NCBI GenBank assembly: GCA_030648615.1
Contig: JAUSHJ010000071.1
Coordinates: 830-64,829, forward strand
Direction of reading: 5' to 3'
Length of the DNA: 64,000 nt
Source of the DNA: Candidatus Micrarchaeota archaeon
GTDB lineage: Archaea > Micrarchaeota > Micrarchaeia > Anstonellales > Bilamarchaeaceae
The position numbers were made by a program, and so were the translations under genes. Below the pieces are notes generated by a model that searched no databases, was not told the origin of the DNA, and saw only the letters and a list, made by a program, of their open reading frames with translations. Of this stretch, positions 1,870-46,244 are shown piece after piece. Within the stretch, counting starts at the first letter, position 1. Each line of letters starts with the position of its first letter.

Positions 1870-2865
1870 ATGGTGGAGTTAACAGATACGCTCAGATTAG
1901 CAACAATAGTAGTAACTATTTCTATAATACTCTCAGGTATAGCTCTTGGTTTAGGAAGATCTCTGGGATATAGAAATATGGAGAATTTTGGAAAGGAAGA
2001 ACTTGGACAATCAATAATAAACGCTGCATTGTTAGGCATAGCAGCTACAATTATTGAAACTACTAAATCAATATCGGCAGATGCTGTAAAAGATACGATT
2101 TGTCAAGCAGCAATTAGCGAAGATGCCATAGCAAAAATAAGCTGCATACAACAAAGTCTTAGTACTGCACTTTTCGGTTTAATCCAGGAAAATATAAAAA
2201 CGCTAAACATAGTCGGCTATTACCAGACATTATCTCTTAATTTTGGTTCATTTTCAATACAGCCATTCATAAATCTCGGAGGAGTGAGTTCAACATTGCA
2301 ATCACAGTTACTGATACTAGAAAATACTCTCATTATGATTAATCTAAATTCACAATTCATTGATTTCATTTCTCAAAATGCATTTGGACTTATATTCGCT
2401 CTAGGGCTAATATTCCGTGCTTTCTTTGCAACAAGAAAATTAGGTGGTTTCCTAATTGCACTCGCCATAGGATTATTTGTGTTTTATCCGATATTTATAA
2501 TGGCATTTCCTACTCCGTATACAGAAATACAAAGTGCAACCGTAAATGCGTCGTTATTCAATAACAATACAAATTACGCATTGATCCCGATAGTTGACCT
2601 TAACGGCAATAATGCCATAGCACAAAAACTTGATAGCCTAGCTGGAAGAACTAGCAACGTAACAAATTCTACCATGACTATGACTGATTTCAGCGGAGAC
2701 TTAACCACCATAATCGGATTAAATGCCAATGCGATAGCCAAAACACTATTATATTCAGTCATAGCCCCAATATTCTCACTCATCATCACAGTCGTATTTA
2801 TAAAAGAACTCTCAAATATCTTAGGAGGAGAGATTGCTTCAGGGCAGATTTTTAACAATCTTTAA
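1870..2865 (+). CDS. Multi-pass membrane protein, first gene of the VirB4-like operon
   Basis: Several hydrophobic helices; stop overlaps the next start. Confidence 0.75.
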   Translation: MVELTDTLRLATIVVTISIILSGIALGLGRSLGYRNMENFGKEELGQSIINAALLGIAATIIETTKSISADAVKDTICQAAISEDAIAKISCIQQSLSTALFGLIQENIKTLNIVGYYQTLSLNFGSFSIQPFINLGGVSSTLQSQLLILENTLIMINLNSQFIDFISQNAFGLIFALGLIFRAFFATRKLGGFLIALAIGLFVFYPIFIMAFPTPYTEIQSATVNASLFNNNTNYALIPIVDLNGNNAIAQKLDSLAGRTSNVTNSTMTMTDFSGDLTTIIGLNANAIAKTLLYSVIAPIFSLIITVVFIKELSNILGGEIASGQIFNNL

Positions 2866-3662
2866 TGAGGGGAATTATGGCAGTAAGCAACAGACTTGTA
2901 ACAGGAATTGCAATAGGTGGAGGCATACTCTCGATACTTTCTGCATTCAGTTTAGGTAGCGTGATATTCACAGTTATTGCAGCACTACTATTTCTAATTT
3001 CCCTAGTAGTATGGAAATATGGGCATATTTTAATTCCAGCAATAACCAAAGCAACAAATTTTATAGAAGTAAGAGATGGTTATGAAATATCCCCAACTAG
3101 AGATTATATAATAAAGAAAAGTGAAAATGGATATTATGCAAGCAAATTCCTTGAAATAAGATTCTACGAAAGTACCATGGACAAACAGGAAGAACAGAAG
3201 ACTTCCATGATAGAATCATTTGAACGCGCCATAAGCTCTCTCAAGTATATAGTAAAGATTTCACTACTTATTTCAGCAGTTGACCTCTCAAAACACATTG
3301 ATGACATAAAAACTAAGAGAGGTTCTGCAGAAAGCAAAAAATCAAAAATTGCCAAAGAAGGAAGCGATGAGGGCATAAGAACTGATAGGGAAATAGCAAT
3401 GTGGAACAGATTGCTTGACCGCATAACTCACGGTGAAAGACCAGTGGAAGTTATTGCTTATGCTAGCACTACTTCATTTGGATTAACCAAAGAAGAAGCC
3501 GTTGCAAAAGTAAGAAGGCAGGCTAAAGAGATTAGAACGATACTCTCAAGCACCTTGGGATGCGACATAGTTGAAATGGTTGATTTAGATATGGTGAAAT
3601 GTTTCGAATGGGATAAATTTTTTCCTGCAACTCAGGAAGAACTAAGAGATGAATTGTTCTAA
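2865..3662 (+). CDS. Membrane-anchored protein (2 N-terminal TM helices plus soluble/coiled domain), VirB4-associated
   Basis: N-terminal hydrophobic hairpin, charged helical middle region; operon context. Confidence 0.7.
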   Translation: MRGIMAVSNRLVTGIAIGGGILSILSAFSLGSVIFTVIAALLFLISLVVWKYGHILIPAITKATNFIEVRDGYEISPTRDYIIKKSENGYYASKFLEIRFYESTMDKQEEQKTSMIESFERAISSLKYIVKISLLISAVDLSKHIDDIKTKRGSAESKKSKIAKEGSDEGIRTDREIAMWNRLLDRITHGERPVEVIAYASTTSFGLTKEEAVAKVRRQAKEIRTILSSTLGCDIVEMVDLDMVKCFEWDKFFPATQEELRDELF

Positions 3663-3688: not shown

Positions 3689-4336
3689 ATGGACTTGTTA
3701 TCTGCACTGGCAAATGGAACCTGTCTCGGACCTCTTTTCGTAGGAACAGTAATCTTAACTTTACTTAACAACTTATGGATCAGTTTAACTAAGAGAAACG
3801 GAATAGCTTATCTCCATACCGACAATAGAGAACCAAACAAATGGATATTATATTTACTATCCGTGGTTTCTACGCTTACCGTAATCCCGATATTACTATT
3901 GACAATATATAATATCCAAAATTACACGATTGCAGATATTATGGTAATAGGCGCATGGATAACCATGAGCTCATTATTATTTGGCTTAATAAGAGTAGAC
4001 ACCTATGAGTTCCTAGGCAACAGACTATTCTTATTATTTGCATGGTTGGGCACCATGGCTCTAACAGAATATGGATTACTTGCTCATCTAAGAATGATAG
4101 GTGGAACACCTACACTTTTTGCAGATTCATTAACTATATTAGGTGTAATAATCGTAAGTATGATGTCTCAGGTTACTGTTACTCAGGAATCTGAATTTTA
4201 TGAGGAAAACGAATTGGAAAGTATCACACCAAAAATTGAAACTGAATCGGAAGTTGAACCTAAAACAAAATTTAAGATTAGTAGAAAACCTAATGCTGAA
4301 AAGGATATGAGAAAGAAAAATAAGGTGAAACTGTAG
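3689..4336 (+). CDS. Multi-pass membrane protein with charged C-terminal tail
   Basis: About 5 hydrophobic segments; operon context. Confidence 0.7.
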   Translation: MDLLSALANGTCLGPLFVGTVILTLLNNLWISLTKRNGIAYLHTDNREPNKWILYLLSVVSTLTVIPILLLTIYNIQNYTIADIMVIGAWITMSSLLFGLIRVDTYEFLGNRLFLLFAWLGTMALTEYGLLAHLRMIGGTPTLFADSLTILGVIIVSMMSQVTVTQESEFYEENELESITPKIETESEVEPKTKFKISRKPNAEKDMRKKNKVKL

Positions 4337-4361
4337 ATGAATTGTCCCATGGAACAACAAG

Positions 4362-4466
4362 CTTGTCGCAAAACGACAAGGTACAATCAACAACAAAAGT
4401 TGTTGATGCACATTGTTTTCAACAGAAAACAATCGTGCCTATTGTTCGAATATCGAACAATCAGGA
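4362..4466. repeat. Tandem-hairpin cassette, four hairpins
   Basis: CTTGTCG-CAAAA-CGACAAG (4362-4380), ATCAACAAC-AAAA-GTTGTTGAT (4386-4407), ATTGTTTTC-AACA-GAAAACAAT (4412-4433), ATTGTTCG-AATAT-CGAACAAT (4441-4461). Confidence 0.85.
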
Positions 4467-4488
4467 TATCTCGACAGGTGATGTCTCG

Positions 4489-5928
4489 ATGAAATTATCA
4501 TACTTATTATCCAAAGAACTTTCCAGAAGAATGATACTTGTCCATCCTCCAGAACCAAGAAAAGATTTACTACTTGCACCTCCTGATGATGCAATATACT
4601 TAGGAAGAACAAGATACTTGGGAACTCCAGTCTTCTGGGATCCGACAAAACTTATCAACCCACATATAGCAATAGTAGGGATAACCGGAAGTGGAAAATC
4701 CTATTTGGTTAAATCTTTCCTCACACGAGCCAGCATGATATGGAACACCAATGCGATTATACTTGACTGGGTAGGAGAATACGTAAAATGGGTAGAACAA
4801 GCTGGGGGAACAGTGATAAAACTTGGAAAAGAAAAGTTAAATCTTCTAGATCTTGCTGGAGTGGAAAAAACAGAAAGGATAAAACAAATAATTTCTGCTC
4901 TAGATATTCTACTTAACTTAAAGCAATATCTTAACGAAAGAGATGAAATAGAAGAAGCGCTTGAAGAGATTTATGAAAAAATGAAGAAACCAACTCTAGT
5001 AGATGTTGTAAAACATTTAGAAACAAAAAAACATAAAAAAGCTGCAAGACTTATAAAAAAATTTACTATAGAAGGAAGTGACTTCTTTGCTGGAAAATCC
5101 ACGCTCAACATAAGAGAACTTACTAAAACTGGCTTAGTATGCTTGGATCTCCATGAATTACCTACGGAAGAAATTCGCTCTCTAGCTGGTTTGACCATAC
5201 TTCAGTATATAAAAGAAACGATGAGGAAAACTAAAGTAGGTGAAGAAAAAGGAATAAAATTATTTGTAGTATTAGATGAAGCATGGAAAATAGCCCAAGA
5301 CGAAACCAGTGACGTCATAACCATAGTAAGAGAAGGAAGAAAATACAATTTCGCACTTATTGTCGCAACTCAGAACCCTACCGACATGCATAAAACGATA
5401 TTCAGCAACGTAGGTACAATGTTCATACTTAGATTAGTACTTAGAGAATTCAGAGATTATGTAAAGAATTCTATAGGTTATAGTGAATTTATAGATCAGG
5501 AAATGGGTAAATTTGGAGTAGGAGACGCTGCAATCAATATGATATTTGCAGAAAGGCAATCAAGAATCACTACGTTCTTATTAAACAAGATTGATGGAGA
5601 AGAACCACTTTTCCAATTCAAGATAAAGGGTGGGGACATGGATGTTGAAATAGAAAGAGAACAGTTCATAAAAATGCTTTACGAAATTGGATTAAATGAA
5701 GGACAAATAAATACGTTAAAACTGGAATTCGAAAAAAACGATGGCATAGTTGAAGGAGAAAGGCTAGTCTCTATTTTAGAAAAATTTGGCTACTCAAAAC
5801 CATCGATAATATCTTTTCTAAGGCAACTTGGTATAGATGAGAAGAATTTAATACATATATTCTCCTTAGTAAGAATGAGAAAGGCATCCAAGGGAGTAGT
5901 TAACATAGTGCTAGATAAGAAGGTATAA
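4489..5928 (+). CDS. VirB4/HerA-FtsK-superfamily ATPase
   Basis: Walker A GITGSGKS, Walker B FVVLDEAWK, REGRKYNFALIVATQNP. Start moved to ATG 4489 (SD AGGTGA upstream); the 49 extra codons in the ORF track are the hairpin cassette. Confidence 0.85.
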   Translation: MKLSYLLSKELSRRMILVHPPEPRKDLLLAPPDDAIYLGRTRYLGTPVFWDPTKLINPHIAIVGITGSGKSYLVKSFLTRASMIWNTNAIILDWVGEYVKWVEQAGGTVIKLGKEKLNLLDLAGVEKTERIKQIISALDILLNLKQYLNERDEIEEALEEIYEKMKKPTLVDVVKHLETKKHKKAARLIKKFTIEGSDFFAGKSTLNIRELTKTGLVCLDLHELPTEEIRSLAGLTILQYIKETMRKTKVGEEKGIKLFVVLDEAWKIAQDETSDVITIVREGRKYNFALIVATQNPTDMHKTIFSNVGTMFILRLVLREFRDYVKNSIGYSEFIDQEMGKFGVGDAAINMIFAERQSRITTFLLNKIDGEEPLFQFKIKGGDMDVEIEREQFIKMLYEIGLNEGQINTLKLEFEKNDGIVEGERLVSILEKFGYSKPSIISFLRQLGIDEKNLIHIFSLVRMRKASKGVVNIVLDKKV

Positions 5929-44909: not shown

Positions 44910-45061
44910 GTGAACCCTCCCAGCACTAAAGTGCTGGGCTTCCAGCTATTTTAGAAGAATCCTGAAAGACTTAGTTGTTCTGGCTCATGTTCTAACTGCT
45001 GAATTGTCTGGTTAAATGTGTGGTCAATTCACTACGGACTAAAGTCCATAGATTTCTTGAC
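44910..45061 (+). mobile_element. Non-autonomous IS200/IS605-type element (PATE-like)
   Basis: TTAT then GTGAACC; hairpin CCCAGCAC-TAAA-GTGCTGGG (44919-44938); second hairpin CAATTCA-CTACGGAC-TAAA-GTCCATAG (stem 45032-45051); no ORF between them. Confidence 0.65.
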
Positions 45062-45110
45062 ATTCTTTTGGTACCGGGGAGCTTTCTTATGGGGGTGTCA
45101 GGAATCCCAG

Positions 45111-45243
45111 GGACCGATAAATCGAAAACGATTTATGGTTTGACAAGAATTTCTTGTCAAATATTGACAAAGTTTTTGCAACTTTGTCAATGGTCCATAT
45201 TTCGAAGTTTCGAAATATCGGAAACTAGAGGGGCGCTCCCCTC
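45111..45243. repeat. Tandem-hairpin cassette, five hairpins
   Basis: ATAAATCG/CGATTTAT, TTTGACAAGAA/TTCTTGTCAAA, ATTGACAAAGT/ACTTTGTCAAT, ATATTTCGAA/TTCGAAATAT, AGAGGGG/CCCCTCT. Confidence 0.85.
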
Positions 45244-46244
45244 TGGTTGGCCTTTAAATTCCCTTCCGGGAAATAATTGAAAGTATGATCCTTGAATATT
45301 GGAAAGGTTTCAAAATCAGAAATAACATCACCAAATTTATCTCTTAGTTCCACAACAAAACTCTGAAATTCGATTCTATTTTTTACTTCTACTTCTACAC
45401 CTATGCGCCAGCGGCCAATGTGGTTCACAACGAAGGTCACATTTTGACTAGCTAAAAGAAAATTATTCAGTTGTTTTTCTCTGTCTGACTGAAGATTATT
45501 TATCCCTAAAAATAGCATGTAGACCTCATAGCCAATAGCAAAAGGATGAATCATTGCACGATAGCCCAATATGAGTTTATTTTGTTCCATTTTTTTTATT
45601 CTTGCAGTTACAGTCTTATCTGAAACTCCAAGTTTATTGGCAATTTGTAAATTTGAGAGAAATGCATCTGTGGAAATCACATCTACTATTTGCTTATCTA
45701 AATCATCAAAACCCAATTCAGAATTAAATTTCATGCTATGTACAAAGTATTTTCTTTCTAGTTGTTCTTCCTTTATTTTATCATCAAGAAGATATATACG
45801 AGATTGATCTCTAACATTTATGTAAACTAAAATTTCATAAGCTTTTACGAATTTACCGTATTTATTTAAAAAATCTTCAAAAATAGTATTGAAAGAATAG
45901 TTATCTTTAGTTATAAAATTTACAATTACATCCCAATTGCCCCCTACTTCCCCTACCCACATGGCACTTGGGTGATTAGAGAGAAATTCCAGAAGTTGTT
46001 GCTTCTGAACTTTACCAGCACCACCTAATCTTATCAATACTCTAAACCAATTATAGCCAACTAGAACACTATCAAAAATAGTTAATGCTGCTTGTATAAT
46101 GCCTTCTTTTTTCATTTTATTTATTCTGTATAATGCTACTTGCCTACTGACACCCGTTTTCTTGGCTAGTTCGCCAATCGGCATTCTGGCATTCATATCA
46201 AGAAAATATAGAATACGACGATCTTTTAGATCTAATTTAGGCAT
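45225..46244 (-). CDS. Tandem-duplicated Lrp/AsnC regulator
   Basis: DLKDRRILYFLDMNARMPIGELAKKTG; second unit DDLDKQIVDVISTDAFLSNLQIANKLG. Confidence 0.9.
   Translation of the reverse strand: MPKLDLKDRRILYFLDMNARMPIGELAKKTGVSRQVALYRINKMKKEGIIQAALTIFDSVLVGYNWFRVLIRLGGAGKVQKQQLLEFLSNHPSAMWVGEVGGNWDVIVNFITKDNYSFNTIFEDFLNKYGKFVKAYEILVYINVRDQSRIYLLDDKIKEEQLERKYFVHSMKFNSELGFDDLDKQIVDVISTDAFLSNLQIANKLGVSDKTVTARIKKMEQNKLILGYRAMIHPFAIGYEVYMLFLGINNLQSDREKQLNNFLLASQNVTFVVNHIGRWRIGVEVEVKNRIEFQSFVVELRDKFGDVISDFETFPIFKDHTFNYFPEGNLKANQRGAPL

Follow-up and report, generated by a model that had tools for sequence, protein, structure and literature searches.

Small selfish DNA elements of palindromic type include the Rickettsia palindromic elements (RPEs) and MITEs. 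RPEs are single elements of 100-150 bp, which occur in a reduced genome and are tolerated inside protein genes and stable-RNA genes. For archaeal introns, highly similar endonuclease-spliced copies in different tRNA genes of one genome were described in the Thermoproteales (Fujishima et al., 2010, as summarised in PMC4090602), and the mechanism of this intron transposition was called unknown (PMC4090602). In the Micrarchaeum ARMAN-2, the broad-specificity epsilon-2 endonuclease cuts relaxed hBH junctions of introns at position 59/60 (PMC3239211). For the tRNA introns of Asgard archaea, a 2026 preprint states that "how they arrive remains open".

Here we analyzed a window of 64,000 nt (contig JAUSHJ010000071.1, positions 830 to 64,829 of the forward strand) from an ultrasmall archaeon of the Candidatus Micrarchaeota, in which a near-identical hairpin occurs in a tRNA intron and in the leader of an ATPase gene. 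The genome comprises 1.65 Mb with 36% G+C in 76 contigs and is ~90% complete. It is a fragmented MAG with contigs broken by repeats, and the gene calls used here are crude longest ORFs.

A near-identical hairpin at two loci

The first-pass annotation had reported a near-identical module of about 30 nt at two places in the window, and this match is seen directly in the sequence. Positions 4437-4466 (GCCTATTGTTCGAATATCGAACAATCAGGA) and 27521-27551 (GCCTATTGTTCGAAACATCGAACAATCAGGA), both on the plus strand, share 14 + 15 identical bases. They agree at 29 of 29 non-loop bases, and the loop alone differs. The identity covers the stems and the adjoining four or five flank bases, and the outermost flank base on each side differs. 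Both copies lie where they had been placed, but the assignment of the two loci needs care: 4437-4466 is the copy in the spacer before a VirB4/HerA-like ATPase gene, and 27521-27551, with the loop AACA, is the copy within the T-loop intron of tRNA-Leu(CAG). In the ATPase gene leader four hairpins abut, the last of which is the spacer copy with the sequence G-CCT-A-TTGTTCGA-ATA-TCGAACAA-TC-AGG-A. Its flanks had been described as unpaired, which is not entirely accurate, because CCT (4438-4440) pairs with AGG (4463-4465) and forms an outer stem of 3 bp across a one-base bulge. This CCT/AGG outer stem is found in three of the 22 copies of the hairpin in the genome, the third one with a different foot.

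A chance resemblance of two unrelated palindromes, for which only the low complexity of A+T-rich palindromes could be put forward, is already refuted and retains practically no probability. The gapped pattern has exactly two occurrences in the window, 100 dinucleotide-preserving shuffles yielded none, and the same outcome was obtained for the bare 8-bp stem pattern. A genome-wide search revealed the core hairpin in 22 copies with shared flanks, so that the match is not unique to the two loci. Of 185,579 species genomes scanned, only Candidatus Micrarchaeota MAGs contain several copies of the module, and elsewhere isolated matches occur in scattered bacterial genomes.

No extended similarity was found around 4437-4466 and 27521-27551 beyond the 30-mer. 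Three other pairs of copies in the genome are equally tight, each of them embedded in a longer shared repeat, and the window pair is the only tight pair without such an embedding. Since the two copies are identical and their surroundings are unrelated, the copying unit can be a single hairpin, and the window pair points to copying at this level. The assumption of a transferred 30-nt module is thus in agreement with an identical pair amid unrelated neighbours, but the piece inserted in the intron is a two-hairpin unit of 57 nt and not the 30-mer alone. The intron copy has the consensus loop of the family, AACA, and the commonest partner hairpin, and the spacer copy has the loop ATA, which is unique. 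The leader copy (4437-4466) is therefore unlikely to be the unchanged source.

Filled and empty sites in a gene leader and in tRNA introns

The HerA/VirB4-like ATPase gene (4489-5928, plus strand; Pfam DUF87 and AAA_10) is a core gene and was found in all of the 25 genomes searched. In most relatives examined, it starts 2-44 nt downstream of a conserved protein ending in ...FEWD..DEVF. In the window, this protein (2865-3662) ends in ...DELF and is separated from the ATPase by an extra ORF (3689-4336), which encodes a 215-aa membrane protein with a lysine-rich tail. The spacer before the ATPase comprises 152 nt (4337-4488) and is filled with hairpins. At least 10 gene starts in the genome share the leader motif GAATTGTCC-N4-GGACAAATATCTCGAA-N(6-14)-TCTCGATG, which in these near-leaderless genes may be a palindromic operator beside a TATA-like box (AAATAT). 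Upstream of the ATPase, this promoter/leader motif, contiguous at other gene starts, is split into an upstream half (4337-4357, plus strand; ATGAATTGTCC-CATG-GAACAA) and a downstream half (4466-4491, plus strand; ATATCTCGAC-AGGTGATG-TCTCGATG), the latter ending in the ATG start of the ATPase (4489-4491). The splitting block of ~108 nt (4358-4465, plus strand) consists of four hairpins with the stems CTTGTCG, ATCAACAAC, ATTGTTTTC and TTGTTCGA. Five paralogous leaders of the type GAATTGTCC-N4-GGACAAATATCTCGAA...TCTCGATG were found without this four-hairpin block. The hairpin next to the module (ACATTGTTTTCAACAGAAAACAATCGT, 4410-4436, plus strand) is a member of a separate ATTGTTTTC family with 12 copies, the partner hairpins of which vary by locus. 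Hairpin blocks interrupt the shared leader motif at different points in at least three genes. An interpretation of the ATPase leader block as an mRNA intron of the bulge-helix-bulge (BHB) type was rejected, as one strict candidate was found and 1.34 are expected in shuffles.

The second copy lies in the tRNA-Leu(CAG) gene (27374-27618, plus strand), which has the acceptor stem GCAGGGA/TCCCTGC and the anticodon loop TTCAGGG and is divided into a 5' exon (27374-27443) and a 3' exon (27605-27618). ARAGORN and Rfam found no tRNA in the unspliced window. After removal of the intron in silico, the spliced 84-mer was called as tRNA-Leu(cag) by ARAGORN, and contiguous tRNA-Leu homologues of 84 nt are present in related genera with 75-81% identity over positions 1-84. 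The intron (27444-27604, plus strand, 161 nt) follows position 59 of the T loop (59/60). It was identified by MFE folding, by a BHB scan and by comparison with a family of paralogous introns. Its junction shows the T stem GCAAG/CTTGC, a central 4-bp helix TTCG/CGAA and the 3-nt bulges ATT and AAT. The intron-side helix is imperfect, which results in the relaxed hBH form of the bulge-helix-bulge. In a BHB scan with an exon-side helix of at least 5 bp and no requirement for the intron-side helix, the intron was among five candidates, and its cut positions are deduced from the established motif geometry and not from data.

MFE folding predicts that the module hairpin coexists with the T stem and the TTCG/CGAA helix. 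The genome encodes a 420-aa open frame with two matches to the splicing endonuclease domain PF01974 and a paralogue of 166 aa. For cleavage, the archaeal endonuclease would require no more than the bulge-helix-bulge that the T arm forms with the two intron ends. The intron would tolerate the insert because self-contained internal hairpins leave the structure of the splice junction undisturbed, and we infer from the sequence that the insert is made harmless through splicing.

A second copy of the 5' acceptor segment was observed 47-86 nt upstream of four tRNA genes (in the window at 27288-27300, and on contigs C38, C39 and C73). At three of these four genes, the upstream acceptor copy is followed by a hairpin and a partial inverted copy (X-hairpin-X'-spacer-X). 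Another genus (G020, L007) shows the arrangement upstream of tRNA-Leu as well, with a hairpin tip that differs. The duplicated segment was considered as part of a further BHB intron and this was rejected, because a palindromic central helix cannot form there.

Homologous long T-loop introns at 59/60 were found in at least seven tRNAs, which differ in their acceptor stems. They are located on contigs C29, C32 (two), C51, C53 and C54 and in the window (27444-27604), and the seven introns share the 5' domain ACCGTTTTGAC..CGGCAAAACGGTTGTCCAAAA. Their hosts include Leu(CAG) and Pro(GGG), the latter called after intron removal. Direct comparison divides these introns into filled and empty ones. Five paralogues are empty and read ...GGTTGTCCAAAA|GCCATGCG... 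(TCCAAAA|GCCATGCG), without any insert. A two-hairpin insert of ~57 nt is located at this TCCAAAA|GCCATGCG point in the window intron and in one further paralogue, on the minus strand of C32. In the window it spans 57 nt (27495-27551, plus strand) and consists of hairpin A (ATTGTTGC-TGAT-GCAACAAT) followed by the module. A clear target duplication was not found at this insert, at most one base. In the orthologous tRNA-Leu(CAG) of another genus (G020), the 59/60 intron comprises only ~38 nt, contains no module and, as judged from the sequence, forms a perfect BHB, which indicates that the intron is older than the insert. With paralogous introns and paralogous leaders that lack the blocks, both window copies look like secondary insertions. 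The insert site is the same in both filled introns, and this could go back to one insertion followed by spread of the intron, so that the copies would not all be independent. A second intron family with two members was found in tRNA-Glu(CTC) and another tRNA (C76, C73). It had been proposed that modules move between introns and the rest of the genome. The filled-versus-empty insertions and the identity of the single unit are in favour of this, but the movement itself is deduced from comparisons.

Four of the 22 copies in the genome are located in introns of stable RNAs. Three lie in tRNAs, namely in the window intron and in two introns of one multi-intron tRNA on C32, and one lies antisense in an intron of the 23S rRNA. 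Introns account for ~2% of the non-coding DNA, and the four observed copies exceed the 0.44 expected from this share (P ~8e-4). This excess fits a tolerance of the module in spliced introns. Part of it may come from the spread of whole introns among tRNA genes and not from separate insertions of the module. In other Micrarchaeota species, four of 28 copies lie within tRNA genes according to a strict script, plus one by eye, and one of them is antisense. The 23S rRNA gene (C69:147-1125, L066) contains a hairpin-rich insertion of 322 nt near the peptidyl-transferase region, at positions ~2571-2574 of the Rfam model, which holds the module in antisense and is presumably an intron; the contig starts inside the rRNA gene. 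An Rfam search with permissive E-values at 20 loci revealed this 23S rRNA host and still missed the intron-split tRNAs.

For the tRNA census, a custom search for T arm and acceptor stem was applied, which misses tRNAs with introns in the stems. A T-loop intron was found in 18 of 34 candidate tRNAs. Two long tRNA candidates (C11 and C76, minus strand) were removed as probable false positives. The standard finders recovered few tRNAs from this ~90% complete genome (ARAGORN 7, Rfam 8 above the cut-off), because most tRNA genes carry non-canonical or multiple introns.

The distribution of the copies could also be explained by an RNA route, in which excised module-bearing introns were reverse-transcribed or reverse-spliced and seeded the family elsewhere in the genome. 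The over-representation of copies in tRNA and rRNA introns of several species, the consensus loop and commonest partner hairpin of the intron copy and the paralogous families of T-loop introns across tRNAs would agree with such a start in introns. However, 18 of the 22 copies lie outside introns, the insert-free paralogues show that the module entered the intron and was not born there, and the antisense copies in introns do not fit reverse splicing. We therefore regard an origin in introns as highly improbable.

A family of hairpin repeats in Micrarchaeota

The TTGTTCGA hairpins form a directly observed, dispersed family of 22 copies, most often with an AACA loop. As had been suggested, the module connects the tRNA intron with the intergenic hairpin cassettes, namely as a member of this family. 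The outer 3-bp stems of the 22 copies co-vary (CCC/GGG, TCC/GGA, CAC/GTG, CAT/ATG, CGC/GCG and CCT/AGG), and a one-base bulge follows CAAT in nearly all of them. Each copy is located directly 3' of another hairpin, and the identity of this partner varies by locus. Perfect hairpins with a TTG...CAA foot are far more numerous in the genome, and the TTGTTCGA hairpins are a subset of them. The genome contains 352 perfect hairpins with a stem of at least 9 bp, compared to 65 in a Markov simulation. For stems of at least 8 bp, 61% of the perfect hairpins fall into the 12% of the genome outside the crude ORFs, with densities of 4.3/kb in tRNA introns, 2.1/kb in other non-coding DNA and 0.18/kb in ORFs. 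A start with ATTG was found in 103 of 673 hairpins.

Four other genomes from this family of genera also contain the TTGTTCGA hairpins, with the same flanks. In a search for close strains, the exact intron 21-mer had no match in metagenome contigs and the exact CCT/AGG variant had none in the species genomes, searches from which the records of the window's own genome and near-identical ones were possibly excluded. Papers describing these modules were not found in the literature searched. A separate repeat of ~100 nt around ACCACAGCC-TTTA-GGCTGTGGT occurs in 13 copies (contigs C8, C10, C12, C18, C32, C33, C40, C41, C62, C63, C64 and C65). It is well conserved and often located at contig ends. 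Several contigs begin or end in hairpin repeats, like C24 and C29, which start with TTGTTTTCAACAGAAAACAA, and this indicates that the repeats break the assembly.

The hairpin might be a functional RNA or DNA motif under selection, for example a protein binding site, which acts in intron folding or processing or in the control of the ATPase mRNA. It was found that the outer stem co-varies and that the bulge position is conserved, that the family is retained with the same flanks across several genera, that several copies lie just upstream of start codons and that copies are enriched in introns. All of this is in line with a function, and perfectly paired stems together with co-varying outer stems would fit selection on structure as well. 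However, the module is present in both orientations relative to its host RNAs (the 23S rRNA intron and one tRNA of genome G003 hold it in antisense). Such hairpins also occur in a promoter, in an element derived from an insertion sequence (IS) and, according to the first-pass annotation, in coding sequence, where one case was checked by eye. The occurrence in both orientations and of cassettes in a promoter region and in an IS points to a DNA element and argues against an RNA motif. A DNA-level repeat is also suggested by the perfect Watson-Crick stems (no G-U pair in the listed copies, which were not systematically tallied), by the five paralogous introns and five paralogous leaders without the hairpin, and by a copy number which ranges from 0 to 22 among relatives of different genera. 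A functional motif is thus quite unlikely in our opinion. A sense-strand RNA motif in particular was dropped, as hairpins with AACA loop show no clear orientation bias with respect to the crude ORFs.

Short-patch gene conversion or recombination would be a further explanation for the matching pair. Both loci would already have possessed a TTGTTCGA hairpin, one of which was overwritten via the TTG...CAA feet. Neighbouring hairpins indeed share their feet (ATTGTT/AACAAT) and have wholly different tips, the mosaic arrays with their varying partners fit recombination at microhomologies, and the junctions between units are short G+C-rich palindromes. However, the sequences to the right of the unit are not homologous (AGCCCA versus TATCTC), so a conversion tract would have to stop exactly at both unit boundaries, and the filled-versus-empty patterns are left unexplained. 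We consider such a conversion unlikely.

An insertion sequence in the same genome also holds hairpins of this kind. An intact IS200-like element of 760 bp is located at C47:14087-14846, with further copies at contig ends. A derivative of it without TnpA is found in the window (44910-45258) and holds a hairpin cassette of 106 nt (45114-45219) with the ends CCGATA/TATCGG, which is absent from the intact IS. At the junction of this cassette a 3-bp GGA overlap is present, compared to none or one base at the intron insert, and a consistent target-site duplication was not found across the two. The end hairpins of the element, AGAGGGG-AGCG-CCCCTCT and CCCAGCAC-TTTA-GTGCTGGG, are unlike the TTG...CAA modules. 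The sole Y1 (HUH) transposase gene of the genome belongs to this multi-copy IS200-like element. Y1 is present in two of five module-bearing genomes and in 11 of 36 that lack the module. The distribution of the IS200-type Y1 transposase over these 41 genomes thus does not follow the module. No transposase or nuclease tied to the modules was found, the transposase census covering PF01797. In another genus (G013), two IS200-like copies (C3:134372-135140, L074, and C3:1-130, L075) carry a two-hairpin module in the leader, between the end hairpin and the transposase gene. An IS can thus ferry the module.

The 30-mer is probably one unit of a Micrarchaeota-specific family of small palindromic repeats, which acts at the DNA level, is copied or recombined singly or in pairs and is tolerated at many sites including spliced introns. 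A unit of this family would consist of an outer stem of 3 bp, a constant TTG...CAA foot, a variable inner stem with loop, and a one-base bulge. Such units would accumulate head to tail where extra DNA is tolerated. One unit together with its partner hairpin would have entered the linker of the pre-existing 59/60 intron of tRNA-Leu(CAG) as an insert of 57 nt. The promoter/leader of the HerA/VirB4-like ATPase is split by a block of four hairpins, one of which would be a sister unit. We infer mobility at the DNA level through hairpin-forming single strands, the candidate routes being the action of a structure-directed enzyme and template switching at palindromes. The mosaic character of the arrays is probably due in part to recombination at the TTG/CAA feet that the units share.

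The filled and empty introns described here are paralogues in one genome, and the unit inserted in them is common to ordinary non-coding DNA. They directly connect, at the sequence level, introns of the endonuclease-spliced type with a repeat family that is spread over the genome. They show one route by which such introns lengthen, and they offer a system for following intron gain. It is conceivable, although we rather doubt it, that the hairpin modules are the material from which tRNA and rRNA introns of Micrarchaeota grow and sometimes arise. A palindromic unit that lands in a stable-RNA gene would become an intron if a broad-specificity endonuclease cuts the resulting helix-bulge junction. 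Hints in this direction are a T-loop intron of 42 nt, which consists only of two hairpins with TTG...CAA foot, and an intron family of 98 nt, which consists of three or four. If true, this would be a concrete and traceable route of archaeal intron gain.

Comparison with known introns and palindromic repeats

The tRNA-Leu intron corresponds to a predicted archaeal endonuclease-spliced BHB intron, since a canonical tRNA is restored on its removal and a bulge-helix-bulge is present at the junctions. It resembles the 59/60 introns of ARMAN-2, which belong to the same phylum, in intron position, in the relaxed hBH junction and in a long, putatively multi-unit endonuclease gene. However, the 59/60 intron assayed there has 13 nt (PMC3239211), compared to 161 nt here, where the intron is swollen by hairpins and belongs to a paralogous family. 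This host intron family, with seven T-loop introns on seven acceptor stems, is similar to the transposed introns of Thermoproteales. The module itself is not, because whole introns are copied in Thermoproteales, whereas here a hairpin unit smaller than the intron is also found in leaders, in spacers, in an IS and in an rRNA intron.

Among the palindromic repeats, the modules show several features of REP, BIME and REPIN sequences. With a length of ~30 nt, a bulge and conserved foot bases, they form imperfect palindromes, and they occur in tens to hundreds of copies, often in doublets or clusters. As in REP and REPIN sequences, the palindromes are short, have many copies and are mainly extragenic. 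In contrast to REP and REPIN systems, a single-copy RAYT-like (Y1) gene flanked by the modules or co-occurring with them was not found. Furthermore, the module arrays are mosaics of many hairpin sequences, and they colonise introns of stable RNAs. The IS200/IS605-derived PATEs are similar in that they are non-autonomous, bear hairpins and presumably move as single strands, and an IS200-like element is present in this genome. However, the module hairpins are not homologous to the IS ends, no conserved target tetranucleotide was seen for them, and the module is a passenger inside the IS.

With MITEs, one cassette can be compared, which has the ends CCGATA/TATCGG and a 3-bp GGA overlap; the duplication at the intron insert is none or one base. 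Like RPEs and MITEs, the modules are small palindromic repeats tolerated in unusual places. They differ from RPEs in that the units of Micrarchaeota have ~30 nt, occur in modular combinations and have no fixed terminal repeats or target duplication. The modules are best read as resembling palindromic selfish DNA of the REP/BIME or MITE/RPE type, but neither a RAYT gene nor PATE-like IS ends are associated with them.
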